Translations under genes and position numbers: made by a program
The notes under the pieces: model-generated
What the model was told of the DNA's origin: nothing
The model's input: the letters and a program-made list of their open reading frames with translations, nothing else
Databases searched by the model: none
Part shown: in pieces, positions 9,762-52,992 of the stretch
Layout: every line of letters begins with the position of its first letter
Position numbering within the stretch: position 1 is the first letter of the stretch
DNA from: an uncultured Thermoleophilia bacterium
GTDB taxonomy: Bacteria; Actinomycetota; Thermoleophilia; UBA2241
Direction of reading: 5' to 3'
Assembly: GCA_903927755.1 (NCBI GenBank)
Contig: CAIYOD010000028.1
Coordinates: 20,374-84,373 of the forward strand
Length of the DNA: 64,000 nt

Positions 9762-10267
9762 GCGGCGGCCGGGACGGCGCCGAGAGCGGCCGCCGGGACG
9801 TCGCCGAAGGCTCCTCGCGCCGCTGGGTGCCCTGGGCGGTGGCGGCGCTCGCCTACGCAGGCTTCGTCCTCTCGGCCTACCTGACCATCGTCCACTACCG
9901 CGGCTACGTCTCGCCGTGCTACGTGGTGCAGGGGTGCGAGACGGTGCAGACCAGCAAGTACTCGGTGATCCTCGGCGTGCCGGTCGCGCTTCTCGGCGCC
10001 CTCTTTTTCGGCCTCATGTTCTATCTGGCGGTGGGGTTGCTCCGGAGCGGATCGCTCGTGCTGGTACGGGTGTTCAAGGTGTTCGCGTTTCTCGGCGCGC
10101 TGGCGATCGTGCCGCTGTTCCTGCTGCAGGCGATCGTCCTCAAGGCGTTCTGCACCTACTGCGTGGCCACCGAGGTCCTGATGCTGGCCATCTGGATCCT
10201 GAGCTTCCTGCTGGCGGCGCCGGCGCGGAGCGGCGAGCCGCTCGAGGCCGGCGCGACCACGGACTGA
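9758..10267 (+). CDS. Vitamin K epoxide reductase (VKOR) family protein
   Basis: ATGA overlap with the DsbA gene. It has four or five TM helices, a loop Cys pair (SPCYVVQGC) and a CTYC (CxxC) motif in the last helix. A DsbA-VKOR pair is the known DsbB-replacing arrangement. Confidence 0.85.
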   Translation: MSGGRDGAESGRRDVAEGSSRRWVPWAVAALAYAGFVLSAYLTIVHYRGYVSPCYVVQGCETVQTSKYSVILGVPVALLGALFFGLMFYLAVGLLRSGSLVLVRVFKVFAFLGALAIVPLFLLQAIVLKAFCTYCVATEVLMLAIWILSFLLAAPARSGEPLEAGATTD

Positions 10268-10431
10268 CCGGGATCTCCGCCTCGCGCCGAAGGCCGGGCG
10301 GACCGCCGGCGCCCGAGGCCCCCCGGGCCGGCTTCGCCTCTCGATGGTCGCCCCGCACCCATCCGCCAGGCAAGCGTACCGGCCGTCCTCGCCCATACCG
10401 GAACGCTCATCTTCGCAAGGCCTTGACGCCC

Positions 10432-10475
10432 GACGCGAGGGGCCGGCCCGCCTGAGCGGACCGGCCCCTCGCGTC
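10432..10475. terminator. Hairpin between convergent VKOR and oxidase genes
   Basis: Perfect 15-bp inverted repeat GACGCGAGGGGCCGG (10432..10446) / CCGGCCCCTCGCGTC (10461..10475) with a 14-nt loop. Confidence 0.4.
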
Positions 10476-10531
10476 GAAGAGCATGCGATGAGAGCATCAC
10501 CGCACTGTGCGGCGAACCCTGATATGCCTCA

Positions 10532-16330: not shown

Positions 16331-16574
16331 TTGAACCCCTTCCCCTGAGCCTTGAACCCCGACGTATCTTGGTCTCGGCTGACCTGTTCTGTCGCGATCA
16401 CCGGCGCGGGCACGCAGACGAGCGCCCTCCCAGGACGAATCCGGTCTAATCATGACCGAATTGGTCCGATGCTGAACACCGATGGAAGGCCTGACATCAC
16501 CTAGCCGAATGGCATAGGGGCCTTTGGCGCCGGCCGGTCAGGAGAGGAGTAAGGCCGCGACTCACGCTCGGGTG

Positions 16575-17282
16575 TCAGTCGCCGTTGGCTCCCGGGTCCG
16601 CGCCGTCGGCGCGGACGGTCCCGTCGCCCATCTCGAGGTGCCGGGTGCCGAACGGGATGAGGTTCCGCGCGTGGGTGACCATGGCGATCGTGAGGCGCTG
16701 CTCCGAATGCACGCGGCTGAAGATCTGCATGATCTCGTCCTCGGTCTCCTCGTCCAGGTCGCTGCTCGGCTCGTCGGCCAACAGGAGCGTCGGGCGGTTG
16801 ACGAGCGCGCGGGCGACGACCACCCGCTGCTGCTGGCCGGCCGAGAGCTCGCGTGGCAGCGCCTCTGTGCGGTGTCCGAGGCCGACAAGGTCGAGCAGTT
16901 CGCGGGCGCGCTGCGGCCCGTCCTCGTGCTCCACCCCGCTGAACTCGAGCGGCAGCATCACGTTCTGCTCCAGCGAGAGGCCGGGGATGAGACTGGGGAA
17001 CTGGAAGACGAAGCCCATGGTGCGGTTGCGCAGGCCGCTGCGCTCGGCGTCGCTGATGCTCCAGATGTCCACGCCGTCCACGGTCACGGTGCCGCTGGTG
17101 GGCGTGGCGAGGCCGGAGGCCACGTTGAGCAAGGTGGTCTTGCCGCACCCGGAGCGGCCGGTGATGACGAGGAACTCGTTGGTCTCGATGTCGAGATCCA
17201 CGTCGTGCAGCGCCGCGAACGAGGCGGCGTCCTTGCCGCTGTACGACTTGCCGATCCCGCGCAGAGAAACCGCTGCAGTCAT
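16575..17282 (-). CDS. ABC transporter ATP-binding protein (MacB/LolD-like)
   Basis: Walker A GRSGCGKTT, Q-loop, signature LSAGQQQRV, Walker B LLLADEPSSDLD and H-loop VTHA. Confidence 0.9.
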   Translation of the reverse strand: MTAAVSLRGIGKSYSGKDAASFAALHDVDLDIETNEFLVITGRSGCGKTTLLNVASGLATPTSGTVTVDGVDIWSISDAERSGLRNRTMGFVFQFPSLIPGLSLEQNVMLPLEFSGVEHEDGPQRARELLDLVGLGHRTEALPRELSAGQQQRVVVARALVNRPTLLLADEPSSDLDEETEDEIMQIFSRVHSEQRLTIAMVTHARNLIPFGTRHLEMGDGTVRADGADPGANGD

Positions 17283-17286
17283 GCGC

Positions 17287-18489
17287 TCACTCCCTCATGG
17301 AGACGGCCGGCTCCTCACGCGAGGCGCGCAGGGCGGGGACGATCGCCGCCGCGGCGGCGACGACCAGCGCCACGAGCAGGCCGACGACCACCAGGACGAT
17401 CATGCTGAGCACGGACGGCAGCAGGATGGTGAAGCCGAGCGCGGAGACGAGCAGATCGTGGAAGAAGTAGACCACGACCACCGCCAGCACAGCCCCGGCG
17501 AGGCCGCCGGCCACGGCGAGCACGGAGGCCTCGGTCATGTACGCCAGCATCACGAAGCGCTGCGTGGCGCCGAGAGCGCGCAGCACGCCGATCTGACGGC
17601 GGCGGTCGTGCACCGACATCAGGAAGATCACGGCCATGAGGGCCAGAGAGAGGGCCACGGTGAGTACCACGATCACGACCAGGGTCCGCAGCACGCCGGA
17701 GATCTGGTCGCCGTAGGAGCCGAACATCTCGGCCGCCGGCACCGCCTGGACTTCCGGCACCGCGTCGGTGATCGCCTGCGCGACCTGGGTGCGGTCGGCG
17801 CCCTGGTCGACCTTGACCAGTACGGACGACACGGTGTCGGTCAGGAGCGGGAGCGCCATCTTGGCCTTCGTCTTGGAGATCTCCTGCATCGCATAGGCCG
17901 AGGGGAAGGTCATGAACAGCGTCTGATCGAGGTTGGTGCCGGTCCGCTCGAGATTGCCGACGAGGTCGAAGTCGTAGCCATAGAGCTTGATCTTGTCCTG
18001 CCCCTCGGGCACGAAGACGTCCGCGCCGCCGACGGCTTGGCCCACCTGCAGGTCGTGGCCCAGCTTCTCCTGGAGCCACGGCTCGACCGTGAAGTCGGTG
18101 ACCGGGTCGAAGGCGAACATGAACATGGTCGACACCGAGCAGCAGGAGGAGTTCGCCATCGAGGTCAGATAGAGCTGCGACGAGGCCTGGGCCACGCCGG
18201 GCACGGCCGTGATCCTGTCCACGACCCCGCGCGGCATGTAGGTGTTGGTCGCGTTGCCCAGCAGCAGCGCGCCCTCGACGCCCGTGACGGAGCCGCGCGG
18301 GACGACGACGACGTCGGCGCCCAGGCGCTCGCGCGCCAGGCGCAGGCTGTCCTGGCCGCCGCGCGAGATGATCACGGTGGTCAGCACCATGGCGGCCACG
18401 AGCAGCGCGCAGCCGCCGACCAGCCAGCTGCGCAGCGGGTTGCTCGAGATGCCGGTGAGGGCGAGCCTGATGAGGCTGCGGGATCTCAG
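17287..18489 (-). CDS. ABC transporter permease, FtsX/MacB type (probable non-canonical CTG start)
   Basis: ORF 17287..18399 encodes the periplasmic domain and the C-terminal FtsX 3-TM bundle (RRRQIGVLRALGATQRFVM...). The expected N-terminal LRSRSLIRLALTGISSNPLRSWLVGGCALLVAAM helix is in frame upstream of the first GTG. I found no ATG/GTG/TTG back to the in-frame stop at 18619. CTG 18489 sits 8 nt after GAGG. Confidence 0.8.
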   Translation of the reverse strand: MRSRSLIRLALTGISSNPLRSWLVGGCALLVAAMVLTTVIISRGGQDSLRLARERLGADVVVVPRGSVTGVEGALLLGNATNTYMPRGVVDRITAVPGVAQASSQLYLTSMANSSCCSVSTMFMFAFDPVTDFTVEPWLQEKLGHDLQVGQAVGGADVFVPEGQDKIKLYGYDFDLVGNLERTGTNLDQTLFMTFPSAYAMQEISKTKAKMALPLLTDTVSSVLVKVDQGADRTQVAQAITDAVPEVQAVPAAEMFGSYGDQISGVLRTLVVIVVLTVALSLALMAVIFLMSVHDRRRQIGVLRALGATQRFVMLAYMTEASVLAVAGGLAGAVLAVVVVYFFHDLLVSALGFTILLPSVLSMIVLVVVGLLVALVVAAAAAIVPALRASREEPAVSMRE

Positions 18490-19084: not shown

Positions 19085-22000
19085 ATGGTAGCGTTTTGTG
19101 CCCGTCCATCAACGATCGAGGCGTTGACGCGGACGACCGGGCTGTCGGGGGAGGACGAGCTGGAGATCCAGAGACCGGCGAGGCTGGCGGCGGCTGTGAC
19201 CGCGCTGCTCGCGACGGCCGTTCTGGCCGCCGGACTGGCCGCCTGCGGCGGCGCGGATGACGACGGCGCGCCGCAGGCGGGCGTCGCCCCGCGCGGCGCC
19301 TCCGGCGTGGACGCCGGCGTCACCAACGGCGCGGTCACCTACAACCCTCGCGACCTCGTGGCGCTGATGGCCGACGACCCCACGCGGGGGGAGCGCTTCA
19401 GCGCCGCGACCAGGGCCGTCCAGAAGTCCGCCGGTCAGCCGGCCCCCCCGGCGCCGCGCCTGGACCCCGGCGCCACCCCCGACTACTTCGGCGGCGTCCC
19501 CAACTGGGCGCTCAGCCCTCAGCTGCGCAAGTTCGTGGACGAGCTGCCCGGCGTCGGGGCCGGCGCCTCCAACGGCCTCGGCCAGTACATCCCGGTGGCA
19601 ACGCCCGACACGGTCACCTACCCCGGCTCCGACTACTACGAGATAGCGGTGCGCGAGTACGCAGAGCAGTTGCACAGCGACCTCCCCGCGACCAGGCTGC
19701 GCGGGTACGTGCAGCTCAACATCGGTACGGATTCGAGTGGTCGCACCACGGTCGGCCCCGCGCCGATCCACTACCTCGGCCCACTCATCCGCGCCCGCCG
19801 CGGCCGGCCTGTTCGCATCAAGTTCGTCAACCAACTGCCCCCCGGGAAGGCGGGCGACCTGTTCCTGCCCGTGGACACGACGACCAGAGGCGCCGGCGCG
19901 GGCCCGCGGGGCGGCGGCGACCTGTACCCACAGAACCGCGCGTCCCTCCACCTGCACGGGGGGCTCACGCCCTGGATCAGCGGTGGCACGCAGTACCAGT
20001 GGATCACGCCGGCCGGCGAGCGGAGCCCCTACCGGTCAGGCCCGAGCCTGGTCAATGTTCCCGACATGTGGTTCGACGAGCAGGGTCGACCGGTGAGCGA
20101 AGGAGCACCCGGGGCCACCAACGACCCCGGCCCGGGCACCACGACGCTCTACTTCCCCAACGACCAGAGCGCCCGCTTCCTCTACCTGCACGACGACACC
20201 TTCGGCCTGACGCGCCTGAGCGTGTACGCGGGTGAGTCGTCGCCCTACTTCGTCGGCGACGCCGTGGACGATGAGCTCGTCGCCGGCAACACCGGCGAGC
20301 CCGCCTCCAGCCGCGCCATCAAAGCTCCCGTGGAGCCCGGCACCGTTCCGGCCGCCGAGCTGCCGCTCATCATCGAGGACAAGACCTTCGTCCCCGCCGC
20401 CGAGGAGCTCCGCGTCCAGGACCCCACGTGGGACATTGCGCGCTGGGGAGGCCTCGGCGCCCTCTGGTATCCGCACGTGTACATGCCCAACCAGGACGCG
20501 GCGGACGCGGTCAACGCCATGGGACGGTGGGACTATCTGCCCTGGTACTGGCGGGGCTACGCAGAGACGGAGAACGGCCCCGTGGCCAACCCGCTCTTCG
20601 GCACCGTGGCGTCCCAGCCCGAGCAGAACCCGGGGACGCCGAGCCCCTCCGTGGTGCCCAGCGCGTTCCTCGACACGATGCTCGTCAACGGGACCGCCTA
20701 CCCCTACGCCAGGGTGGAGCGCAAGGCCTACCGGCTGCGCATCCTCAACGCCTGCGGCGACCGCCAGCTGAACCTCCAGCTGTACTACGCGCGCTCCGAC
20801 AGCTTCGCCGAGACCGGTCCGGGAGGAAGGCCCGAGCTCCAGACCGATTCGGGCGACGTCGCCATGCTGCCGTCCATGTCCCCCGTCGGGGGCGGCTGGC
20901 CCGCGCGCTGGCCGACGGACGCGCGCGCGGGCGGCGTGCCGGACCCGCGCGCCATCGGACCGGACATGATCCAGATCGGCAACGACGGCGGCCTGCTGCC
21001 CCAGAGCGCCGAGCTCAAGAGCACGCCGGTCGGGTTGGAGTACCTGGCGCCCAGCGCCCGGGACCAGGCGATGGGCGAGTTCACCTCGATCATCGCGATC
21101 AACGGCCGGGCGCTCTACCTCGCGCCCGGCGAGCGCGCCGATGTGATCGTCGACTTCTCGCAGGTCCCGGCCGGTTCCAAGCTCATCCTGTACAACGACG
21201 CCCCGGCGCCCGCCCCCAACGGGGACAGCCGCGTGGACTACTACACCGATGACGTGGACCAGACCGCCATCGGCGGCGCGCCCATCACCGTCGCGGGCTA
21301 CGGACCCAACACGCGCACCGTCCTTCAGTTCCAGGTCGATGGACCAGCGGCGGCGCCGTTCGACCTCGAGCGGCTGCGCCGCGCGCTCCCGGCTGCCTAC
21401 GCGGCCGCGCAGGACCCCGTGCTGGTCCCGTCAGTCGAGTACGACGCGGTGTACGGGACCTCGGCCGAGGAGGACGACCTGGGCGCCGATACCCCGGAGG
21501 CGGCGCCGTCCAGTGCGGCGCCGGAAGCCATGCAGGGTGGCGGCATGGACGAAAGCATGGCGCAAGGCGAAGCGTCGACCGTCCCGCAGAAGGAGTCCGG
21601 CACGCTCACCTTCACGCCTCTGGGCCGGGCCTACCGGCTGACGCTGCCCGTGCAGGGCAAGATGGTGAGCGACCTGTTCGACCCGACCTACGGCCGCAGG
21701 ACCGCCACACTTGGCGTCGACGCTCCCCTCTCTGCGAGCGGCGTGAGGACGGCCGTGCCCTACTCCGCCATCGACCCCGCCACCGAGTACCTGGCCGTGG
21801 ACGAGGAGGCGACCGCGCCACAGCTGGGCGACGCCACTCAGCTGTGGCGCATCACCCATGACGGCACGGAGTCGCACAGCATCTCCTTCGGCGGCTTCGA
21901 CGTGCAGGTGGTGGAGCGCGCGCGGCGCAGCGGCGCAGCGCGCGCGCCCGACCCCGGCGAGCTCGGCTGGAAGGACACGCTGCGCGTCGACCCGCTCGAG

Positions 22001-22537
22001 TCGGTGCTCATCGCGGTGCGGCCGGTCCTGACGAACGTGCCCTTCAAGCTGCCGGCCAGCCAGCGCGACCTCGACGTGACACGCGAGCCCGGCGCCAAGG
22101 GCGGGTTCACGGAGCTGGACCCGGTCACCGCGGCGCCGTTGCGCCGTGAGGTCGTCAATGCACCGGCCGAGCTGAGCTTCGAGGCGTACTGGAGCATCCA
22201 CCTCATCGGTGGCGAGGAGAGCCACACAGCCCGGCCGCTCGTGCTCCAAGGGACGACGGAGGCGCCGGACGGGCTGACGGCGACGGGAGAGGGTACCAGC
22301 GTCAAACTGGCGTGGACGACGCCTCTGTTCCCGCCGCCCGTCATCGGCTACGTGGTGGAACGGGCGGCCGACGAAGGCTTCGCCGCGGACGTGACGACCT
22401 TCGCGACTCCGGCCGACGCCTCCACGTACACCGACACGACCGCGGAGGGCGGACGCACCTACTTCTACCGCGTCCGCACCGAGTCGGCCGCAGGCTGGTC
22501 GCCGTGGTCCGCGGCCGCCGAGGCGAGCCTGCCCTGA
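19085..22537 (+). CDS. Multicopper-oxidase-like lipoprotein with degenerate copper sites and C-terminal FN3 domain
   Basis: Colinear with the catalytic core of 10532..16330 (PDYFGGVPNWALSP, HLHGGLTPWISGGTQYQWITP). Lipobox ALLATAVLAAGLAA-C. Copper motifs are altered: LHDD, HSISFG, WSIHLIGGEES. The listed ORF start 18242 is a shadow extension. The true start is uncertain: ATG 19085, TTG 19124, or CTG 19160 just after GGGGGAGGA. Confidence 0.8.
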   Translation: MVAFCARPSTIEALTRTTGLSGEDELEIQRPARLAAAVTALLATAVLAAGLAACGGADDDGAPQAGVAPRGASGVDAGVTNGAVTYNPRDLVALMADDPTRGERFSAATRAVQKSAGQPAPPAPRLDPGATPDYFGGVPNWALSPQLRKFVDELPGVGAGASNGLGQYIPVATPDTVTYPGSDYYEIAVREYAEQLHSDLPATRLRGYVQLNIGTDSSGRTTVGPAPIHYLGPLIRARRGRPVRIKFVNQLPPGKAGDLFLPVDTTTRGAGAGPRGGGDLYPQNRASLHLHGGLTPWISGGTQYQWITPAGERSPYRSGPSLVNVPDMWFDEQGRPVSEGAPGATNDPGPGTTTLYFPNDQSARFLYLHDDTFGLTRLSVYAGESSPYFVGDAVDDELVAGNTGEPASSRAIKAPVEPGTVPAAELPLIIEDKTFVPAAEELRVQDPTWDIARWGGLGALWYPHVYMPNQDAADAVNAMGRWDYLPWYWRGYAETENGPVANPLFGTVASQPEQNPGTPSPSVVPSAFLDTMLVNGTAYPYARVERKAYRLRILNACGDRQLNLQLYYARSDSFAETGPGGRPELQTDSGDVAMLPSMSPVGGGWPARWPTDARAGGVPDPRAIGPDMIQIGNDGGLLPQSAELKSTPVGLEYLAPSARDQAMGEFTSIIAINGRALYLAPGERADVIVDFSQVPAGSKLILYNDAPAPAPNGDSRVDYYTDDVDQTAIGGAPITVAGYGPNTRTVLQFQVDGPAAAPFDLERLRRALPAAYAAAQDPVLVPSVEYDAVYGTSAEEDDLGADTPEAAPSSAAPEAMQGGGMDESMAQGEASTVPQKESGTLTFTPLGRAYRLTLPVQGKMVSDLFDPTYGRRTATLGVDAPLSASGVRTAVPYSAIDPATEYLAVDEEATAPQLGDATQLWRITHDGTESHSISFGGFDVQVVERARRSGAARAPDPGELGWKDTLRVDPLESVLIAVRPVLTNVPFKLPASQRDLDVTREPGAKGGFTELDPVTAAPLRREVVNAPAELSFEAYWSIHLIGGEESHTARPLVLQGTTEAPDGLTATGEGTSVKLAWTTPLFPPPVIGYVVERAADEGFAADVTTFATPADASTYTDTTAEGGRTYFYRVRTESAAGWSPWSAAAEASLP

Positions 22538-25807: not shown

Positions 25808-27298
25808 CTACTCCGCGTCGGGCCCGGCGCCCTGCAGCGCCGGCTCCCGCGAGGCCGCGAACTCGAGCACGACCACGGTGCGGCCCGGACGCGTGGTGAG
25901 CACGACGCGCGTGCACAGCTGCAGCATGATGGTGAACCCCATGCCCAAGCTGGCGGCCGTCGAGAAGCCGGGGACCAGCGTGGCGCGGGGCAGCGTCCTG
26001 AAGTCGATCCCCGGGCCCTCGTCGCTGATCGCGATCTGCAGGCTGTCCTCCCGCACGAACGCCTGGTACGAGCCTCCGCCGGCGTGCTTGATCGCGTTGT
26101 CGAGTGCCTCGCCCGCGGTGCTCAGCAGGTCGGTGTGGCGGATGCGCCCCGGGAAGCAGCCCTCGGCGGCGCGGACCGCCGCGCGGCGGATCGTGGCGAG
26201 CTGCGCCGGCGCGCCGAAGACGGCCGGCGGCGCGAGCGGCGACCCAAGCTCGTCCGCCAGTTGCTCGTCGGTGAGGAGGATGAGCTTGCCGCCGGTCACC
26301 GCGTCCAGCACGTCGACGTACGCCAGCCGGATCCCCTCTTCCTGCCGGCGCAGCGCCCGCTCGGCCTCGCGCAGGTCGGTGACGTCGGTCGCCGACACCA
26401 CCCAGAGGTCGTCGGCGGCCGGGTACGCCGAGAGCAGTTCGTAGTCCCCCTGCGTCCGCAGGTACACCTCGCAGCGAGCCGGGCGACCCGCCGCAATGGC
26501 GCCGGAGACCACGTCGAAGTAGGCCTGCAGCCGCTCGTCGCTGCCGTCGAACTCGCTGAGGCGCCACCCCACCAGTCGTTCGCTGTGGACCTTGGTCCGC
26601 CGCGCCTGGACGGGGTTGATATCGGCGATGACGAGGTCCTCGACCTCGCCGCCGGAGCTTCGTTCCACACGGAAGACGACGAGGCCCTCGGCGGCGTTGT
26701 CGAAGAGACGCCTGTACCGCTGTTCGCTCTCCAGCAGCAGCGCGTGCTTCTGCTCGTGCTGCAACGCGCTCAGCCCGAGCTCTCCGAGCATGCCGACGAA
26801 GTCGGAGAGGAACCCGATCGTCTTCTGCAGGCGAGCCTGCGTGATCACCGGGACCCGATCGAGCGCCTGCAGATACGCGTCCACGTCGAACCCGAGACGC
26901 CGCGCCCGCTCGGCGAACACCTGCCGGTCCACATCGTCGTCCTCGAAGAAGAACTGCCCGGTGTAGACGTTGGCGACGTGCTCGCCGGCGACGACCAGCG
27001 GGAAGGCGACGTCCCAGAGGCCGTTGCTGCAGCGATACGCGTAGTGCTCGCTCCCGTCCAGACCCTGGACGAGGCGCTGATTGATCAGCAGGTCGCTCTC
27101 GAGGCACCCCTGCAGCGTGTCGGGATGCTCACGATGAAAGCGGGTGCAGATGTCCTGCCAGCCCGTGGCGATCAGGACGTTGCCAGAGAGATCGAGCAGG
27201 GCGAGGGTGACATCAAAGGCCTGGGAGAGACTGTCGCAGAGTCGCTGGACGCGGTCCAGATCGATGAGCTTGGTCAACTCGTACCCGCTCGGCCCCAT
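25808..27298 (-). CDS. PocR-PAS sensory protein with C-terminal GHKL ATPase-like domain (no HisKA H-box seen)
   Basis: ORF 25808..27418 trimmed to ATG 27298. PocR-like region: LDLSGNVLIATGWQDICTRFHREHPDTLQGCLESD...YRCSNGLWDVAFPLVV...VYTGQFFFEDDD. PAS: SEQRYRRLFDNAAEGLVVF. C-terminus GEALDNAIKHAGGG...ISDEGPGI...GMGFTIM resembles anti-sigma-kinase-type ATPases. Ends in TAG. Confidence 0.75.
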   Translation of the reverse strand: MGPSGYELTKLIDLDRVQRLCDSLSQAFDVTLALLDLSGNVLIATGWQDICTRFHREHPDTLQGCLESDLLINQRLVQGLDGSEHYAYRCSNGLWDVAFPLVVAGEHVANVYTGQFFFEDDDVDRQVFAERARRLGFDVDAYLQALDRVPVITQARLQKTIGFLSDFVGMLGELGLSALQHEQKHALLLESEQRYRRLFDNAAEGLVVFRVERSSGGEVEDLVIADINPVQARRTKVHSERLVGWRLSEFDGSDERLQAYFDVVSGAIAAGRPARCEVYLRTQGDYELLSAYPAADDLWVVSATDVTDLREAERALRRQEEGIRLAYVDVLDAVTGGKLILLTDEQLADELGSPLAPPAVFGAPAQLATIRRAAVRAAEGCFPGRIRHTDLLSTAGEALDNAIKHAGGGSYQAFVREDSLQIAISDEGPGIDFRTLPRATLVPGFSTAASLGMGFTIMLQLCTRVVLTTRPGRTVVVLEFAASREPALQGAGPDAE

Positions 27299-27436
27299 CG
27301 GGCGTTCGCCTCCACTTGCGCCGAATCGGCGCACCCCTCGCGGCGCCCCCGCCGCGCGGAACAGTCCTCCCTCTTGGTTACCCGCCAGGCGCGGGCCCCG
27401 AACGCGGCCGGCCCGCACGAGACGCTCAGCCTTCGT

Positions 27437-28864
27437 CTAGCTGCCCGACTGCGCCGTCACCCGGCCCGAATCCACCGCCTCGCGCAGGGCGTCGTAGTCG
27501 CTCTGGTTCTGCTCCGCGTACGCATCCGCGAAGTCGGCGACGGCGCGGTCGAAGATGTCGCCGACGCCCAGGTAGGCGGCAATCGCGATGCGGTCGCCCG
27601 AACGCGCGTGCGCGCGAGCCAGCACCCAGGAGCACATCATCGCGTACGTGTGCCACGCGCCCTCGGTCATCGCCCCGACGTTGAACGACCCCTTGCCGTC
27701 CCAGAGCTGGCGCACGTAGAAGTCGTAGGGTCTGCCGTCGAACCCGGTCACGCTGTACCAGCCGAGCAGGATGTCGCCGACCGCCTGCATCAGCCGCTGG
27801 CCCTCGACCACGCGCCGCCCGGAGTTGCGGAACCGGCTGCGTCCGACGAAGCGCTCCAGGACGGAGGCCTGCGCCTGCTTGGCCTGAAGGAACAGCGGGT
27901 CGCCCTCGTCGCGGCCGAAGAACAGCAGGACCCAGGCGCGGGTGCCGACGCTGCCGACCCCGACGACCTTGCGCGCCATGTCCCGGTAGCGGTAGAGGTC
28001 ATACGCCGCTCGCCGGTCTTTCGGCAGCGTCTCCCGGTAGTTGCGGAGAGCTTCCTCCACGGCATGCGTGAAGCGCGCCCGCTCGTCGCCCGCGAGCAGC
28101 TCTCGGGCGGGCACCAGCAGCGGCGGGTCGCTGCGGAGCCGCGTCTTCCCCTCCACCTCGGCGGTGAGGCGGGAGAGCGCGCGGAGGTCGTGCTTCATCT
28201 CCGCGCGTGACATGTCCTTGGCCATCCGCTTAGCGTCCTTGCCTCCAAGCGACGTGAGGTGGTTCTGGATGAGGTCGGCGTCGAGCCGCGTGTACCAGAG
28301 GTCGATGGCGCGCTTCTCGGCCATCTCCAGCATCGCCTCGCGATAGGCGCGTACGCAGTGCATGACGATCGACCGCCGCGTGGACGCGGCGTAGCCGTGG
28401 TCGCGCGCCGCGATCTCGAAGCTGACCGCGAGGCGCTTGACGTCCCACTCCCACGGCCCGGGCAGCGTCTCGTCGAAGTCGTTGATGTCGAAGACCAGCC
28501 GCCGCTCCGGCGACTGGTACAGGCCGAAGTTCATGAGGTGGCTGTCGCCGCACAGCTGGGCCGTGAGCCCGGAGTCGGGCGTCCCGGCCAGGTCCGTCGC
28601 CATGAGCAGCGCGCCGCCCCGGTAGAAGGTGCCCGGCGAGACGAGCATGCGCGCGTAGCGGAGGGGCACCAGGTCGAGGACGCGATCGGCCCCCTGCTCC
28701 TCGAGCAGGCCGACCGGATCTGGACGATCGGCGGGCGCCTCCCACCGCGCGTGCGCGGAGCGGGGCGCCTGTTTGCGCGCCGCCTTGCCGCGGGCGGCGC
28801 GCTCGGCAGGCGTGAGCTTCTTCGCCTGGGCGATCTCGGGCAGCAGTTCAACCACGGCCCTCAC
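27437..28864 (-). CDS. DUF2252 domain-containing protein
   Basis: 475-aa ORF. PVGLLEEQGADRVLDLVPLRYARMLVSPGTFYRGGALLMATDL...LCGDSHLMNFG...FDINDFDET...WEWDVKRLAVSFEIAAR matches my recollection of the DUF2252 family. Ends in TAG. Confidence 0.8.
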   Translation of the reverse strand: MRAVVELLPEIAQAKKLTPAERAARGKAARKQAPRSAHARWEAPADRPDPVGLLEEQGADRVLDLVPLRYARMLVSPGTFYRGGALLMATDLAGTPDSGLTAQLCGDSHLMNFGLYQSPERRLVFDINDFDETLPGPWEWDVKRLAVSFEIAARDHGYAASTRRSIVMHCVRAYREAMLEMAEKRAIDLWYTRLDADLIQNHLTSLGGKDAKRMAKDMSRAEMKHDLRALSRLTAEVEGKTRLRSDPPLLVPARELLAGDERARFTHAVEEALRNYRETLPKDRRAAYDLYRYRDMARKVVGVGSVGTRAWVLLFFGRDEGDPLFLQAKQAQASVLERFVGRSRFRNSGRRVVEGQRLMQAVGDILLGWYSVTGFDGRPYDFYVRQLWDGKGSFNVGAMTEGAWHTYAMMCSWVLARAHARSGDRIAIAAYLGVGDIFDRAVADFADAYAEQNQSDYDALREAVDSGRVTAQSGS

Positions 28865-28991
28865 CCCTCCAGGACGACGGCGGTACCACTCACGGTGACG
28901 ATCATCGGCTTCCCCCTCTCATGATGCGCCGGGCGGCTGCGCCGAACGATATGCTGCCGCCAAAGAAGACGCAAACACTCCGGCTTTGCCG

Positions 28992-30224: not shown

Positions 30225-31643
30225 TCAGCGGCCGGTCGCCGCAGCGGCGCGCTGGGGATCGGCCTGCGGCTCGATCGCCCGGAGCCTCCCCGCTATCTCC
30301 TCGAGATAGCGGCGATTGTCCGGGCGCCTCTCCCAGCGACGCACGAACCACCAGCACCACAGGTGGTCGTGCGCCACGCTCCAGCGTCGGCGAGCGAGCT
30401 GGTGGAGGAACCGCCGGAACGAGTAGAAGCGCTTGTACGCCCGCAGAAGCTCGCCCTGCAGCTCCGCCGGCGTCATCTTCAGTGGCGCGATCATCACGTG
30501 CTGGCCGTCGTAGAGCTCCCAGCGTCTGTCGACGATGCGGCCCGCCGCCTCCATCTCGTCCCACCACTCCGTGCCCGGCGCCGGCGTCAGGACGTTGAGC
30601 ATGACGGTGTCGATGTCGTGCCGAAGGGCGAAGTCCGCGGTGTCGCGGACGGTCTGGCGATCGTCGGTGTCGGCGCCGAGGACGAACATCCCGTGGGAGC
30701 GGATGCCGTACTCGTGCAGCGTGTCGACGGCGGAGACGATGTCGGCCACGGTCTGGGACTTGTGGAGAGCGTCGAGCGTGGCCTGGTCCACGGATTCCAA
30801 CCCCAGTCCGACGACCCTGCAGCCCGAGTCCCTCATGAGGCCCAGCAGCTCGGGATCCCGCACGACATCGGTGCGCACCTGTGACTGCCAGGGGATCACC
30901 ACGCCGCGCTCGATCATCAGGCGCAGCAGCGTCTTGAGGCGCTTCGCGTCCGCCGCGAAATTGTCGTCGTAGAAGAAGATGTGCTTTGGCCGTTTCTCCT
31001 CGATCTCGGCCACGACACTCTCAGCGCTGCGGTATCGGTACTTGCGCCCGAACATCGCCGTGACGGAGCAGAAGCTGCAGCCGAACGGACAGCCCCAGCT
31101 CGTCATGATGGGCGTGGACTGCATGCGCTCGTGGCCCACGATCAGCGTGAGGTCCGGCACCGGGAGCTCGTCGAGGTCCGGACAGGCGTCGCGGCGCTCG
31201 TTGTGCACGGCACGGCCGTCGCGCAGGAAGGAAAGGCCACGGATGGAGTCCAGCTCGAGGTCTCCGTATATGGCCTCCATGAGCTCGAAGATGAGACTGT
31301 CGCCCCCCTCGCCGCGGGCGACGTAGTCCACATGCCCGAGCGCCTCCTCGGCCATGAAGGTGACGTGGGCGCCGCCCATGACCACCGGCACGCCGAGACC
31401 GCGCAGCCGGTCGGCGATGGCGTAGCCCGCCGGCGCCGTGGAGGTGGTGGTCGACAGGCCCACGAGGTCCGCGCCCGCGACGTCGTCCCAGTCCACGGGC
31501 GCCATGTCGGTGCAGTAGATGCGCACGTCGTGGCCCGCGGCCTTGAGCGCCGCGCCGATCATCGGCAGACCCAGCCGCGGATAGCGCCACGGCGACATGA
31601 TGTGGACGCTGGGCGGCTCCGGCTCGATCAGGCGGATCTTCAT
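30225..31643 (-). CDS. B12-binding domain-containing radical SAM protein
   Basis: N-terminal cobalamin-binding-like Rossmann region (LGLPMIGAALKAAGHDVRIY...VGLSTTTS...VVMGGAHVTF). Radical SAM cluster motif CPFGCSFC (CxxxCxxC), followed by the TIM-barrel region. Confidence 0.9.
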   Translation of the reverse strand: MKIRLIEPEPPSVHIMSPWRYPRLGLPMIGAALKAAGHDVRIYCTDMAPVDWDDVAGADLVGLSTTTSTAPAGYAIADRLRGLGVPVVMGGAHVTFMAEEALGHVDYVARGEGGDSLIFELMEAIYGDLELDSIRGLSFLRDGRAVHNERRDACPDLDELPVPDLTLIVGHERMQSTPIMTSWGCPFGCSFCSVTAMFGRKYRYRSAESVVAEIEEKRPKHIFFYDDNFAADAKRLKTLLRLMIERGVVIPWQSQVRTDVVRDPELLGLMRDSGCRVVGLGLESVDQATLDALHKSQTVADIVSAVDTLHEYGIRSHGMFVLGADTDDRQTVRDTADFALRHDIDTVMLNVLTPAPGTEWWDEMEAAGRIVDRRWELYDGQHVMIAPLKMTPAELQGELLRAYKRFYSFRRFLHQLARRRWSVAHDHLWCWWFVRRWERRPDNRRYLEEIAGRLRAIEPQADPQRAAAATGR

Positions 31644-31746: not shown

Positions 31747-32877
<1,131 letters not shown>

Positions 32878-33052
32878 GCGTCTCCTGCCGTCGGTGCCGC
32901 CCCTGGGTGTGGGGCGGCCAGGTGCCGGAGGCAGCCGGGAAGCCGGCAACCTCTGCTCGCGGCGGGCGACGCGGGCGCCGAGTCGAAAGGGAGGGACGTC
33001 AGGCGACGTGCGGAGCGAGGCTGTAAGTGTAGCAGGCTCGCGCGCAGATATC

Positions 33053-47373: not shown

Positions 47374-47601
47374 TGCTGCGTCCTTGCTTCTGGCTCCGTC
47401 TGGCTTGCTGGGACGACGGCCGGTGGATCGTCCGCCGGCAGGCCGGGCCGTCAATGATAAGTGCCCGCAGCCGCGAGCACGACCGACGCCCGGCGCCGGG
47501 GCAGAGGGCGGCCGAACTGCTACTGTCTTCCTGCGTAGGGTCGGAGTCGATCACGAGCCTCGACGACCATGAGAAAGCGAGCTGGAGGGAGGTGCGCCGG
47601 C

Positions 47602-48483
47602 ATGGCGCAGAGCGGCGGTCCACAACTGCGGCTCGAGTTCTGGCGTGGGTTCAGGCAGTCCATGACGGAGCAGAGCGCCATCACCTGCGGGCGCGCGTCG
47701 TCCGAGACCTGGATGCACCACGACGCGCGGCTCAACTGCGGCAGGCTCTTCTCGATGATCCGCACGAGGGACGGAGAGATCGGATCGCAGTTCGCCCTGG
47801 ACGACCTCACCGCGCGGACGGTCTTCACTCTCCTCGGCGATCATCGGCAGGAAGTCGACGAGGCGTTCGGGCGGCCGCTCGCCTGGCGCGTGGTGAGCGA
47901 CAGAATGCATGAGATCGACCTGCGCCGGCCGGCCGACCTCGAACGCCGCGACGACTGGCCGGAGCTCTTCGCGTGGCTGGCGGACAACCTCGACGCCTTC
48001 ACCCGCGCGCTCGTCCCCTTCGTCGGTCGTTCGATCCCCACGCCCCACCAGGGCGACTGGGACGAGACGTCGTTCTTTGCCGCACTCGGCGAGCACAACC
48101 CCGGCGCCGCCGGCCCGGCCCGTGAGCTCCTCGAGTGGGGCCGGGCATCGCTGCCCCACCTGCGCTGGGGCCACGGCAAGCAGTCCGGCTCCTTCACACC
48201 CAGCGTCCTCAGGTCCGGCCTCGAGCACAGCGTGCTCAGCGTGTGGACCGACGGCCTCTTCTGCATCCGCTTCGGAGCGCTCGCCAAGACCCCGGCGTTC
48301 GCACCGGAGTCGATGCGCACCGAGCTGCTGGATCGACTCAACGAAGTCCCGCGCTTCGCCCTTCCGGCAGGAGTCCTCGACAAGTACCCCGGCCTGCCCC
48401 TGGGTCTCCTGGGCGACCCGGCGACCATGCGGGCGTTCCTCACCGCCCTGGACTGGTGCGTCGCGGTGATGAAGCAGCGCTGA
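47602..48483 (+). CDS. DUF4268-like protein with extra C-terminal domain
   Basis: ORF trimmed to ATG 47602. The N-terminal half (LRLEFWRGFRQSM...W...FALDDLTARTVFTLLGDHRQEVDEAFGRPLAWR...) fits my recollection of DUF4268. The C-terminal half was not recognised. Confidence 0.5.
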   Translation: MAQSGGPQLRLEFWRGFRQSMTEQSAITCGRASSETWMHHDARLNCGRLFSMIRTRDGEIGSQFALDDLTARTVFTLLGDHRQEVDEAFGRPLAWRVVSDRMHEIDLRRPADLERRDDWPELFAWLADNLDAFTRALVPFVGRSIPTPHQGDWDETSFFAALGEHNPGAAGPARELLEWGRASLPHLRWGHGKQSGSFTPSVLRSGLEHSVLSVWTDGLFCIRFGALAKTPAFAPESMRTELLDRLNEVPRFALPAGVLDKYPGLPLGLLGDPATMRAFLTALDWCVAVMKQR

Positions 48484-48548
48484 CCCCGGCGTCGCCGCAC
48501 GCGCGGGGCCGCGAGACGCGCCGCCCGGCTCAGCTGTGCCGTCGATAC

Positions 48549-48576
48549 TTGCGTCCTGAGCGGTTTTCTGCATAGT
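48549..48576 (+). promoter_or_regulatory. Candidate sigma-70-type promoter of the methyltransferase cluster
   Basis: TTGCGT (48549..48554), a 16-nt spacer, then CATAGT (48571..48576). It lies about 35 nt upstream of ATG 48612, which has a GGAGGTGG Shine-Dalgarno. Confidence 0.35.
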
Positions 48577-48611
48577 CGCCGCGCGACTCGTACAGCGACC
48601 GGAGGTGGACC

Positions 48612-50087
48612 ATGCGCGAAGCCGCGACGACCAACGACACCAGCCGAGCACCCGAGCAGAGCATCGGGAGCTACTTCACGCGGCTCACCGACGCGCAGTG
48701 CGAGCGGCTGCACGAGGCCACCCTGCAGGTCCTGGAGAGGACCGGGCTCATCATCGACGACCCGGAGGCTCTGGCGCTCCTCGCCGCCGCCGGCGCCGAC
48801 GTGGACGGCACGCGCGTGCGCATCGGCCCGAAGCTGGTGGAGCGCGCCCTCGCGTCCGCGCCGCGTGAGGTGACCCTCTACGACAGGAACGGCGAGCCGC
48901 GCCTCGTGCTCGCCGGCCGCCGGACCTACTACGGCACCGGCAGCGACTGCATGTACTGCTTCGACCACCGCACCGGCGAGCGGCGCCGCGCCGTGCTGCA
49001 GGACGTCGTCGAGGCGACCACCGTGACGGACGCCTGCGGGAACATCGATTTCGTGATGTCGCTGTTCACGCCGAGCGACGTGGACGCGCGCGTCGCCGAC
49101 CGCTACCAGATGGCGACGATGCTCGGCAACACCACCAAGCCCATCGTGTACATCACCATGGGCGACGAGACCGCCAATGCCGACGCCGTCGCCATGGCGG
49201 AGGCGGCGGTCGGCGGCGAGCGGCAGCTGCGCGAGCGGCCTTTCGTGGCCTGCTACAAGAACACACTGTTCCCGCTGGTGCACAACCGCGAGGCGGTGCG
49301 CACGCTGCTCGACCTCGCCGGCAAGGGGCTGCCCTGCATCTTCAGCCCCGTCTCCACGGCCGGCACCGTCGCCCCGATGACCGTCGCCGGCTCTACGGTG
49401 GTCGTCAACGCCGGGGTGCTGGCGGGCCTCGTCATGGCGCAGCTCAAACGCGAGGGCGCTCCGTACATCGCCATCGGCTGGGCCGGCGAGGCCATGGACA
49501 TGCGCACCATGGTCGACGTCTTCGCGTGGCCGGACCACCGCGGCGTCTACTCGTCGCTGCTGCACTGGTACGGGCTGCCGCTGTGGACGCTCGGCGGCGT
49601 GACCGACTCCAAGCTGCCCGACCAGCAGGCGGCGGCCGAGACGGCCCTCACCCTGATGGCCGACGCGGTCATCGGCGGGCACATCAACCACAACATCGGC
49701 TTCATCGAGTCGGCGTTCACCGGCTCGCTGACGCAGGTGGTGCTCGGCGACGACATCGCGGGCTGGATCAAGGCGTTCGTCGCGCCGGTGGACCTGAGCG
49801 ACGAGGCGCTGGGGCTCGACGTGATCGACGAGGTCGGGCCCGGCGGGCTGTTCCTGAAGCACAAGCACACGCGCCGGCACGCGCGCGACCGCTTCCAGCC
49901 CGCGGTCTTCGACCGCAGCACCTTCGAGGACTGGGGCAGGCGCGGCGGCAAGGACGCCACTGAGGTGGCCGCCGAACGCGTGGACGAGCTGCTGGCGACC
50001 CACCGGCCGGAGCCGCTGCCGGCGAGTGCCCAGACAGCGGTCGACGACATCGTGGCGCGCGCCCTGGACCGCGCTCGCCGCGCGTGA
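48612..50087 (+). CDS. MttB-superfamily methyltransferase, non-pyrrolysine member (quaternary amine/other substrate)
   Basis: 491 aa, uninterrupted and colinear with the mttB at 51508..52992 (LHEATLQVLERTG..., ...LGGVTDSKLPDQQAAAETALTLM...). It has Val where the paralogue has TAG. Confidence 0.9.
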   Translation: MREAATTNDTSRAPEQSIGSYFTRLTDAQCERLHEATLQVLERTGLIIDDPEALALLAAAGADVDGTRVRIGPKLVERALASAPREVTLYDRNGEPRLVLAGRRTYYGTGSDCMYCFDHRTGERRRAVLQDVVEATTVTDACGNIDFVMSLFTPSDVDARVADRYQMATMLGNTTKPIVYITMGDETANADAVAMAEAAVGGERQLRERPFVACYKNTLFPLVHNREAVRTLLDLAGKGLPCIFSPVSTAGTVAPMTVAGSTVVVNAGVLAGLVMAQLKREGAPYIAIGWAGEAMDMRTMVDVFAWPDHRGVYSSLLHWYGLPLWTLGGVTDSKLPDQQAAAETALTLMADAVIGGHINHNIGFIESAFTGSLTQVVLGDDIAGWIKAFVAPVDLSDEALGLDVIDEVGPGGLFLKHKHTRRHARDRFQPAVFDRSTFEDWGRRGGKDATEVAAERVDELLATHRPEPLPASAQTAVDDIVARALDRARRA

Positions 50088-50101
50088 GAGGAGGAGGCGA
50101 C

Positions 50102-51496
50102 ATGACGACGGAAGAGCGGATCCCGACGCGGCTCGGAGACGGCTCCCTCCTCACCCTGACCCGGAGTCAGATGCAGGCGGACATCGAAGCCGGCGTCGAG
50201 GCGGCCGTGAAACGCGCCCACGTCCCGCCGCTGACGGCCGCGGAGGCGGACCACCTGCTCGACATCTGCGCCTCCCGCGCCAGGTTCAGCAGCGTCGACC
50301 TGGGGACGGAGGTTGTCCTCAGCATCGACGGCACCGGTGGCCAGCTCGTCGCCGGCCGCCAGGGCGACCTGCTGACGTTCGAGCAGTACCTGGGGGCCGA
50401 CATCGTCGAGCTCTACCACATGGACTACTCGTTCAAGGCAGTGAAGACGGTGCTGCCGTTCGAGCGTCAGAGTCTCAAGAACGCGCAGCAGGCGCTCACC
50501 GTGCCGGTGCAGTACGGCGCCATGCCGGACCTGGGGCGCTACTCCCGGCCGGACGGTCCTATCGCGAACTGGTCGGAACTGCTGCCTCTGGGGCGCATCG
50601 CCGAGGCGCGCGCGGCGCAGGAGGAGGCGGCGGAGATGGCCGCGCACGACATCACCTTCGTGGCCGAGGGCGTGTGGGAGGCGGGGGCCGACGGCATCGA
50701 CCTGGACACGTCGGGCGCGGCCGGCGACGCAGACCTGCTGGCCGCGCTCACGGCGACCCGGGAGATCCGCGGTCGCTGCCCCGACATGGGGATCGAGATG
50801 GGCATGGCGAGCGAGATGGTCCTCGGGATGCACGGCGAGCTGGAGTGGCAGGGCGCCCGGCTTGCCGGCCTCTGGCCGCACCAGCAGGTGAAGCTGGCCG
50901 CCGCGGCGGGCGCCACGGTGTTCGGGCCCGCCGTCAATGTGAACTCGACGAAGTCGCTGCCCTGGAACCTGGCGCGCACGCTGACGCTGTGCAAGCCGTG
51001 CTGCGAGGAGTCGCAGATCCCCGTGCACATGAACGTCGGGATGGGCGTGGGCGGCGTGCCGATGGCCGTCCGGGCGCCGGTCGACGCGGTCTCCCGCGCC
51101 GCGCGCGCCTGCGTCGACATCCTGAAGGTGGACGGGTTGTAGGTGGGCGCCGGCGATCCGCTCGGGATGAGCGCGACGCACGCCAACGCCGCGGGCATGG
51201 GCGGGATGCGAGCCGCCGGAGATCTGGTGGCTCGCCTGCAGATGACCCGGGGCATGAGGCTCCCCGAAGCGAAGCGCTACGTGGCCGACAAGCTGGGCGT
51301 CGGTCCGTCGGACCTCTCGGACGCTCCGACGATGCACGAGGTGAGGGGCGAGCTGGGGCTCGGGCGGATCTGCTACGGGGGCGCTGCCCTCTACCCCGAC
51401 CAGCCGAGCGCGATGGAGGCCAAGTTCCGCATCGCCGAGGTGCTCGGCATCCCCGTGAACTGCGTCGAGCGGTTCCGCACGCACGCGAGGATCTGA
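50102..51496 (+). CDS. mtbB: Dimethylamine:corrinoid methyltransferase MtbB with in-frame TAG (51140..51142) at the pyrrolysine position
   Basis: ORFs 50084..51142 and 51143..51496 are in the same frame, separated only by TAG. ATG 50102 follows GAGGAGGAGG. The joined 464-codon product is colinear with archaeal MtbB. ...MGMGVGGVPM...[46 protein letters not shown] matches the recalled Methanosarcina MtbB1 motif VDGI-Pyl-IGVGDPLGM...[12 protein letters not shown]. Confidence 0.9.
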
Positions 51497-51507
51497 GGGG
51501 AGCAGGG

Positions 51508-52992
51508 ATGGACGACGTACGTGACCAGCGCCTGGCCGGCGTCCCTCAGGTCCGCCTCGGCGTGCTGAGTGAGCGGGACCTGGACGACCTCCACGAGGCG
51601 ACCCTGCGGGTGCTGGAGCAGACCGGGGTCTGGGTCGAGGACGCCGAGGCCCTCGACGTGTACGCCGACGCCGGGTGCGCGGTGGACCGGGACGCGCGGT
51701 CCGTCCGCATCCCGCCAGGCGTCGTGGATGCGGCGATCGCCTCGGCCCCGGCGGAGTGGGTCCAGTGCGGCCGCGACCCCGCTCGCGACGTGCTCCTCGG
51801 CGGCGACCGGGTGACCTTCACCAACTTCTGCGAGGGCCTCTTCATGATCGACGCTCGCAGCGGCGCGCGCCGGCCGGCGACCACGCAGGACGTGGAGGAC
51901 ACGGCGCGCCTCTCCGACCGCCTCGGGATGATCGACTCCTACATGGTCGCCGTCACCGCGTCGGACGCGCCCACGGCCACCGCCTCCCTGCACGGACTGC
52001 GCGCGGCCTTCCGCGGCACGAGCAAGCACATCGTCGCCGGCGCGGCCAACGCGTTCGAGAGCGAGGCGAGCATCGACATGGCCGCGGCCATCGTCGGCGG
52101 GCGAGACCGTCTACGCGAGCGCCCGATCATCGAGTTCGGCGGCTGCCCCGTCAGCCCGCTGCGGCTGCCCCGCGAGCTGACCGAGGTGGCCATCACGGCG
52201 GCGCGCAACGGCATCCCGTTCGGCGCCTGCTCCATGGTCATGGCGGGCGCGTCGGCCCCGGTCACCCTGGCCGGCGCGCTGGTCACCCACAACGTGGAGG
52301 TCCTGGCGACCCTCGTCCTCGTCCAGTCGGTGGAACGAGGGTCGCCGTTCCGCGCCTCGAGCTCGAGCACCGGCATGGACCTGCGGGTCGGTACGTGCCC
52401 CGTCGGGTCGCCCGAGTGCGCCATGCTCAACGTCGGCGTCGCGCAGCTGGCGCGGCGGTACAACCTGCCCAGCCTCGTCGCCGGGTTGTAGGCGGACTCC
52501 AAGACGTGTGACGCCCAGGCCGGTCACGAGAAGACGCTCACCGGAGTGATGACTGCGTTGGCAGGCGCCAACCAGATCTACGGAGCGGGCATGGTCGAGT
52601 CGGGCGTCACGTTCGATCTGGGTCAGCTGGTCGTGGACGACGAGATCGCGCGCATGATCCGCCACATCCTGGAGGGGATCCCCGTCAACGAGGATACGCT
52701 GCTGCTCGGGGACATCCAGGACGTCGGCTGGTCCGGGGAGTTCATGTCCCGCAAGAGCACGCTGCACGGCATGCGAGCCATGTCGGCCCCGCGGATCTTC
52801 GACCGCGGGGTGTACGAGGTGTGGGACGCCGCGGGGAGAGTGGACCTGGCGCGGCGCGCGCGAGACAAAGCGTTGGCGCTGCTCGACGAGGACGGCGGCT
52901 GCGACCTGCCGCCCGACGTCTCCGCCGAGCTCGACGCCATCGTCGCGCGCGCGGACCGCGCCGTCACACCGCCGGCTGCACCAGATGGATGA
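51508..52992 (+). CDS. mttB: Trimethylamine:corrinoid methyltransferase MttB with in-frame TAG (52489..52491) at the pyrrolysine position
   Basis: ATG 51508 follows GAGGGGAG. The frame of the tail of ORF 50026..52491 continues after TAG into ORF 52546..52992. The junction reads ...[49 protein letters not shown], total 494 codons. This matches the G-L-Pyl-x-D-S-K context recalled for Pyl-type MttB. Confidence 0.9.

Follow-up and report, generated by a model that had tools for sequence, protein, structure and literature searches.

The stretch of DNA analysed herein (the window) spans 64,000 nucleotides (nt) from an uncultured Thermoleophilia bacterium (GCA_903927755.1, contig CAIYOD010000028.1, positions 20,374 to 84,373 of the forward strand), and contains an mtbB gene, predicted to encode a dimethylamine:corrinoid methyltransferase, whose reading frame is interrupted by a single TAG codon. 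The explanation held with considerable confidence is that this is the mtbB of an uncultured Thermoleophilia actinobacterium, and that its TAG is decoded as pyrrolysine (Pyl) by machinery encoded outside the window. The elements of the gene itself, given as window positions, are as follows.

50090..50097, + strand: Shine-Dalgarno sequence of mtbB, GGAGGAGG, read off the sequence, four bases ahead of the ATG at 50102
50102..51496, + strand: predicted mtbB, 464 residues if the TAG is decoded (PF09505, 547 bits; TIGR02368, 421 bits against a cut-off of 369)
51140..51142, + strand: in-frame TAG, putative Pyl codon of mtbB, codon 347 (UAG positions 1–3 of RF02509; TAG in 136 of 137 copies)

Two open reading frames (ORFs), 50084..51142 and 51143..51496, abut here in the same frame, with the TAG at 51140..51142 as the sole separator. 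When read from the ATG at 50102, the likely start, which lies 14 bases beyond the TGA of the upstream gene (48612..50087), the sequence gives 346 residues, the TAG, a further 117 residues and a TGA at 51494..51496, amounting to 464 residues with the TAG decoded. This is the layout, junction and read-through length that a first-pass annotation, made from the letters of the DNA, had described; its further statements, that the second part starts at a GTG (51143, directly behind the TAG) not preceded by a ribosome-binding site, and that high third-position GC continues unbroken over the TAG, also hold, the latter with values of 0.90 on the 5′ side and 0.92 on the 3′ side. That annotation had additionally called the gene an mtbB homologue and proposed an alignment to the hidden Markov model of the family, which, when run, returned a full-length match above the equivalog cut-off. 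Specifically, the read-through product (with X at the TAG) matches Pfam PF09505 (Dimeth_Pyl; cut-off 25 bits) almost end to end, over profile positions 4–462 of 463, whilst in NCBIfam TIGR02368, the equivalog model for [dimethylamine--corrinoid protein] Co-methyltransferase, residues 9–460 fall on profile positions 7–464 of 466. Judged by these family models, ORF 50102..51496 is confirmed as a single mtbB gene, a member of the dimethylamine:corrinoid methyltransferase family with a predicted enzyme function. A sequence search of the PDB for an MtbB structure returned none, the sole matches having E-values of 0.4–0.5, and a promoter and terminator scan around the operon described below gave nothing useful.

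With regard to the identity of the TAG, the Rfam model RF02509 (PYLIS_2) begins at the pyrrolysine UAG of mtbB, and matches the window at 51140..51239 over model positions 1–100, scoring 57.8 bits where the gathering score is 36, such that the window TAG falls on consensus positions 1–3, UAG. A set of 137 mtbB copies, drawn from 76 related loci, has TAG at the aligned position in every copy but one, with differing residues around it (K/R, I/L/V/M/C, D, G and L/Y before; V/I/A, G, x, G and D after). The claim of the first-pass annotation that the TAG lies exactly at the pyrrolysine codon is in agreement with both results, and the parallel it drew to an archaeal junction is consistent with them; the placement of the TAG in the pyrrolysine column is supported with the family models and the Rfam model, rather than a named Methanosarcina protein, as the reference. 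The gene thus resembles Methanosarcina MtbB, as represented by the TIGR02368 and PF09505 models, in being a full-length match with a single in-frame UAG at the RF02509 anchor column, and it has the G-x-GD that is conserved in the MtbB family directly after the UAG, as well as a second conserved motif further on.

Two explanations that dispense with pyrrolysine are difficult to reconcile with these alignments. A sequencing or assembly error, or read-through in which a near-cognate tRNA inserts a standard amino acid, has nothing specific in its favour and is the most remote of the possibilities considered: of 137 independent copies, which stem from dozens of assemblies, 136 have their TAG at this very codon, and a second TAG lies on the pyrrolysine column of the adjacent mttB (see below). 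Scarcely more credible is a split gene, whose 346- and 117-residue products would arise independently, with GTG 51143 as the start of the second, and would associate with no pyrrolysine involved. Whilst the position of this GTG directly 3′ of the TAG would suit such an arrangement, it has no ribosome-binding site, the codon after the TAG in relatives is often ATC, ATA, GCG or GCA, which are non-start codons, and the catalytic residue of the family would be lost.

The region beyond the TAG bears further marks of being translated. In four pairwise comparisons by the Nei–Gojobori method, the ratio of non-synonymous to synonymous substitution rates (dN/dS) between the window gene and those of related loci is 0.12 before and 0.07 after the TAG for L001, 0.30 and 0.25 for L002, 0.47 and 0.45 for L003, and 0.37 and 0.28 for L032; a fifth relative, L054, was left out as an indel shifts its frame. 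By this measure the segment 3′ of the TAG is under purifying selection like the segment 5′ of it, and a dead 3′ end is ruled out, since values after the TAG (0.07–0.45) are matched by those before it (0.12–0.47). A protein database search yielded approximately 1,800 mtbB homologues, of which the best 120 are nearly all 342–346 residues long with 73–75 % query coverage, indicating that standard gene callers have truncated them at this codon. Two homologues, P0100 with Q and P0327 with L at the TAG site, are probably alternative-code gene calls and were not used as evidence; a search seeded with P0100 (the sole full-length hit) returned Firmicute relatives that again end at the same codon.

The genes surrounding mtbB, some of which belong to a cassette shared with related contigs, are listed next.

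47569..48483, + strand: DUF4268-domain gene, left edge of the shared cassette (PF14088, 57 bits; same family at the same place in L001)
48612..50087, + strand: MttB-superfamily methyltransferase of the non-pyrrolysine type, no internal stop, first gene of the apparent operon (PF06253, 283 bits)
51508..52992, + strand: predicted mttB, encoding a trimethylamine:corrinoid methyltransferase of 494 residues with its TAG decoded (TIGR02369, 583 bits against a cut-off of 525)
52489..52491, + strand: in-frame TAG, putative Pyl codon of mttB (residue 334 of 7XCL_A; UAG of Rfam RF02510)
47578..52961, no strand assigned: shared cassette of the DUF4268 gene, the non-Pyl MttB-family gene, mtbB and mttB (blastn, ~91 % nucleotide identity to two contigs with unrelated flanks)

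As they are tightly spaced on the same strand, 48612..50087, mtbB and mttB look like a three-gene operon with mtbB in the middle. The first gene scores 362 bits against TIGR02369, under the cut-off of 525 that the mttB product exceeds. The latter also matches Methanosarcina barkeri MttB (PDB 7XCL) with 310 bits, in an alignment that sets LVAGL-TAG-ADSK opposite YVAGS-X334-SDAK of 7XCL_A and in which Tyr364 is conserved; X334 of this structure is Pyl334 (PMC9842639). Standard gene calling yields two ORFs for mttB, as it does for mtbB, and by its alignment mttB is a second pyrrolysine-type gene, located directly 3′ of mtbB, with a predicted function. Gly110 is reported as 100 % conserved in Pyl-MttB (PMC9842639), but in the window mttB the phmmer alignment sets Cys-Glu opposite Gly110-Thr111, an arrangement that is alignment-dependent. 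Residues 103–110 of this protein (51814..51828) include NFCEG, and clade relatives carry NF[S/C/D]EG at the same spot. The arrangement is unlike the mtbCB unit of Methanosarcina, in that the window mtbB has an MttB-family paralogue on one side and mttB on the other, with no mtbC in the operon or the window. To the left of the cassette lies a 2-oxoacid:ferredoxin oxidoreductase operon on the opposite strand.

Both pyrrolysine-type genes have a predicted RNA hairpin at a similar distance from the UAG.

51208..51235, + strand: 12-bp RNA hairpin with loop AGAU, 69–96 nt past the U of the mtbB UAG, corresponding to the 3′ hairpin of Rfam PYLIS_2
52553..52575, + strand: 9-bp hairpin, 65–87 nt past the mttB UAG (RNAalifold, 26 copies)

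A structure downstream of the mtbB UAG, PYLIS_2 (RF02509), has been predicted previously (PMC3639795). Its 3′ hairpin is the covarying element at 51208..51235, the difference being that this hairpin reaches 12 pairs in the clade of the window, all 12 of which are formed in the window itself. The 44 nt around it fold with −28.7 kcal/mol (z = −4.5; 0 of 200 shuffles fold as well); when the 100 nt after the UAG are folded alone, z is −1.8 for mtbB and −0.1 for mttB. On 66 de-replicated mtbB copies, RNAalifold returns this hairpin as the sole consensus structure. Its eight pairs at first and second codon positions are dictated by the peptide R-A-A-G-D-L-V-A-R; the four third-position pairs (+69/+96, +72/+93, +75/+90 and +78/+87) are free to vary, and covary through synonymous, compensatory changes. 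For example, pair +75/+90 is C-G in 61, G-C in 36, U-G in 15, U-A in 6 and unpaired in 10 of 128 copies, and is therefore paired in 92 % of cases against 52 % expected from independent columns. In these third-position pairs, 65 cells are changed on both sides against 20.5 ± 3.4 in shuffles, and the covariation score is 0.26 as compared to 0.015–0.106 with the partner columns slid. On a neighbour-joining tree the orientation of each third-position pair flips 6–11 times, and both orientations co-occur within clusters of at least 80 % identity. The four pairs rank 1st, 3rd, 4th and 9th among 2,750 variable third-position pairs of mtbB, a ranking in which some unrelated pairs display a similar excess because of paralogue subfamilies. 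The 5′ hairpin of PYLIS_2 is not supported in this clade, as it has several non-standard pairs in the window and its observed pairing equals the independent-column expectation in 128 copies.

On this comparative evidence, the case for selection acting on the mtbB hairpin as RNA seems a good one, and the element may tune pyrrolysine insertion against termination. In the mttB hairpin, one pair switches from A-U to U-A, and third-position entropy falls from ~0.7 to 0.11–0.47 over codons +7 to +69; with so little variation, the covariation signal is weak. In Thermoleophilia mttB, synonymous changes are strongly suppressed for ~60 codons past the UAG (52510..52700 in the window), with rare codons such as TTG and GCA conserved, a pattern that suggests an RNA-level constraint. 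The PYLIS element has long been disputed, and the idea that hairpins placed 65–69 nt past the UAG in mtbB and in the unrelated mttB are true recoding elements favouring pyrrolysine insertion, and thus a bacterial counterpart of PYLIS, is put forward tentatively, as one that is rather doubtful.

The relatives of the window gene point to its host. A scan with one genome per species gave 75 mtbB loci, almost all of which derive from uncultured Thermoleophilia or from unclassified or other Actinomycetota metagenome-assembled genomes (MAGs), with L054 as the best at 89 % identity, and many of these genomes hold several mtbB copies. The best named matches of the window RpoD are also in Thermoleophilia; no 100 % database match was found for either the window MtbB or RpoD, and a look-up of the exact product of the non-Pyl MttB-family gene gave no record. 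Taken by these sequence affinities, the host is an uncultured Thermoleophilia actinobacterium. Some related loci come from MAGs named palsa_, bog_ and fen_, which we take to originate from Stordalen Mire. Thermoleophilia mtbB paralogues number several per genome, as many as three of them in tandem (L004, 9997..15156, with many further loci), and form subfamilies with distinct junctions, KIDGY-TAG-VGTGD and RLDGL-TAG-IGAGDNHS among them, a hint that their substrates differ. A canonical tRNA-Thr(UGU), in some cases together with tRNA-Thr(CGU), is encoded no more than a few kb from mtbB in L004 (11497..11572) and ~35 other Thermoleophilia loci; it is found in over half of the related loci, often ~100 nt past the gene, and is absent from the window cassette. 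This could reflect conserved synteny or an island inserted beside a tRNA gene. A role for this tRNA as a suppressor was rejected, as it is canonical, with anticodon UGU or CGU.

By blastn, window positions 47578..52961 align at ~91 % identity with L001 (7517..12861), and positions 47584..51540 with L054 (7528..11438). No part of the window outside the cassette matches L001 or L054 in this comparison, and the cassette therefore stands in three different contexts. Because the genomic contexts are unrelated in the two closest relatives, it may have been recently acquired. In L001 the two MttB-family genes that flank mtbB are broken up, with 20 gap openings in 4.4 kb, which could equally represent decay or assembly indels.

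With regard to the decoding machinery, a tblastn search for pylS, in which an M. mazei PylRS sequence served as a probe only, matched one mtbB locus, L032, from a Thermoleophilia MAG. Here pylSc (11668..12522) is convergent with mtbB, and its product scores 314 bits against TIGR02367 (cut-off 178). A subsequent scan of metagenome contigs with the L032 PylSc gave 52 loci at 60–85 % identity, in seven of which a tRNA-Pyl (anticodon CUA) lies ~4 kb downstream of pylSc; the pylT sequence of the clade is GGGGGGTCGATCGGAAGGATCAGCGTGGGCTCTAAACCCACGCAGGCGGGTGTGACTCCCGCACTCCCCGCCA. The arrangement is most complete in L078 (71 % GC; 9971..18240), where an amidase gene, pylSc and a corrinoid protein gene are accompanied on the other strand by pylB-pylC-pylD-pylT, with pylB, pylC and pylD each over its equivalog cut-off. 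No pylSn was seen beside the pyl genes of this locus. A DUF6328 gene follows next after pylT, and an ORF at 10949..11755 of L078 was dismissed as spurious, being the corrinoid protein gene read in antisense. Corrinoid proteins are encoded ~2 kb downstream in 23 related mtbB loci, and also in 33 pylSc loci. As judged from gene content, this lineage has a full pyl system, usually apart from mtbB; the full set is known from related metagenome contigs of high GC, which are taxonomically unlabelled, and pylSc from a named Thermoleophilia MAG.

Several observations weigh against pyrrolysine being used at this locus. No pylT, pylS, pylB, pylC or pylD lies within the 64 kb window, and neither ARAGORN, Rfam, a scan for CUA anticodon loops nor blastn with the tRNA-Pyl of the clade revealed a tRNA-Pyl in the window or the mtbB loci. 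A motif scan and tblastn with the corrinoid protein of the clade likewise found no corrinoid protein in the window. TAG is also the ordinary stop codon for 12 of the 49 delimited window genes (the remainder having 37 TGA and 0 TAA), rpoD (31747..32949) included. Finally, the cassette occurs in unrelated contexts in its two closest relatives, and the decoding capacity of the host rests on inference.

The missing pyl and corrinoid genes would be expected of an orphan cassette, horizontally acquired by a host without pyl genes, in which the TAG terminates translation and only an inactive 346-residue fragment is made. The identity of ~91 % to L001 and L054 despite unrelated flanks fits such a history, as does the fragmentation of both flanking methyltransferase genes in L001, although these breaks, with their 20 gap openings, could equally be assembly errors. 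In the window, however, all three genes are intact, the downstream hairpin retains 12 of 12 pairs, and the comparison with L001 gives a dN/dS of 0.12 before and 0.07 after the TAG. Furthermore, pyl genes often lie far from mtbB in this lineage, and since pylSc is present in only 1 of the 76 mtbB loci, their absence from 64 kb says little. An orphan cassette is thus considered improbable, if less so than a split gene or an erroneous TAG.

The preferred explanation remains a pyrrolysine-decoding host. As the window has neither pyl genes nor a corrinoid protein and related contigs carry the set, decoding in the window's own genome is something we only infer, by analogy with these contigs. Genes outside the window would supply PylS and the tRNA-Pyl (CUA) that it charges, this tRNA would insert pyrrolysine at the UAG of 51140..51142 in competition with release factor 1, and in the resulting full-length MtbB the pyrroline ring of this residue would activate dimethylamine and methylate a corrinoid protein encoded elsewhere. 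That TAG ends 12 of 49 genes, about a quarter, implies that recoding is local, with TAG not reassigned genome-wide, and that decoding must be partial or conditional, competing with termination. In other pyrrolysine-using bacteria, insertion similarly competes with termination.

A number of further features of the window touch on these subjects. The sole B12-binding domain found in it belongs to a radical SAM enzyme (30225..31643, − strand; PF04055 with an N-terminal PF02310), which is not a methyltransferase corrinoid protein. In 25808..28864, a DUF2252 gene on the − strand stops at a TAG (27437..27439), and its frame stays open through the next gene, a kinase with a PocR sensor, such that read-through would fuse both; these abutting ORFs (27437..28918 and 25808..27436) were rejected as a third case of read-through, being a complete DUF2252 gene and a separate PocR-type kinase gene. 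Elsewhere, two very large secreted proteins, 10532..16453 (− strand) and ~19300..22537 (+ strand), which flank an ABC transporter pair, have multicopper-oxidase-like copper motifs, e.g. WHCHILSHEEMDMM, as read from their translations.

Pyrrolysine-dependent MtbB and MttB are textbook enzymes of methanogens, with further examples known from Firmicutes and Deltaproteobacteria. Unlike Methanosarcina, the host of the window genes is a bacterium with ~70 % GC. The lineage resembles Desulfitobacterium hafniense and Acetohalobium arabaticum in having a stand-alone pylSc alongside pylB, pylC, pylD and pylT, and in that UAG is still a common stop, with insertion competing with termination. In these two Firmicutes the pyl genes lie beside the methyltransferase genes; unlike them, the window has no pyl genes within its 64 kb, and related contigs keep pylSc apart from pylB-pylC-pylD-pylT.

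Within the phylum, a full-text literature search on pyrrolysine use in Actinobacteria returned just one sentence, in PMC10805028, and a count of two PylRS bearers, in PMC9630628. The former states that Actinobacteriota MAGs express Pyl-type mttB and mtbB. These MAGs, from Stordalen Mire, are of the same phylum as the window and have the same two genes, likewise recognised by truncation at the amber codon; the statement in PMC10805028 concerns expression, with pyl genes, genomic context and downstream RNA structure not forming part of it, and the window represents a different, closely related genome. The window gene is therefore a real recoding site of an already known kind, in a phylum reported before with such genes. 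The present analysis adds to this a second pyrrolysine gene, a host within the Thermoleophilia, a cassette that looks mobile and has neither pyl nor corrinoid genes, the arrangement of the pyl genes in the lineage, and the covarying hairpin.

These findings have consequences for annotation, as both mtbB and mttB emerge from standard gene calling as two pieces, and almost every mtbB homologue in the databases is a fragment of 342–346 residues. The covarying hairpin offers a means to probe, by way of synonymous mutations, the effect of mRNA structure on the decoding of UAG as pyrrolysine. With regard to the organisms themselves, pyrrolysine use and the anaerobic demethylation of methylamines in soils and wetlands may have in the Thermoleophilia a large reservoir that is little documented, and such demethylation would draw on the substrates of methylotrophic methanogens.

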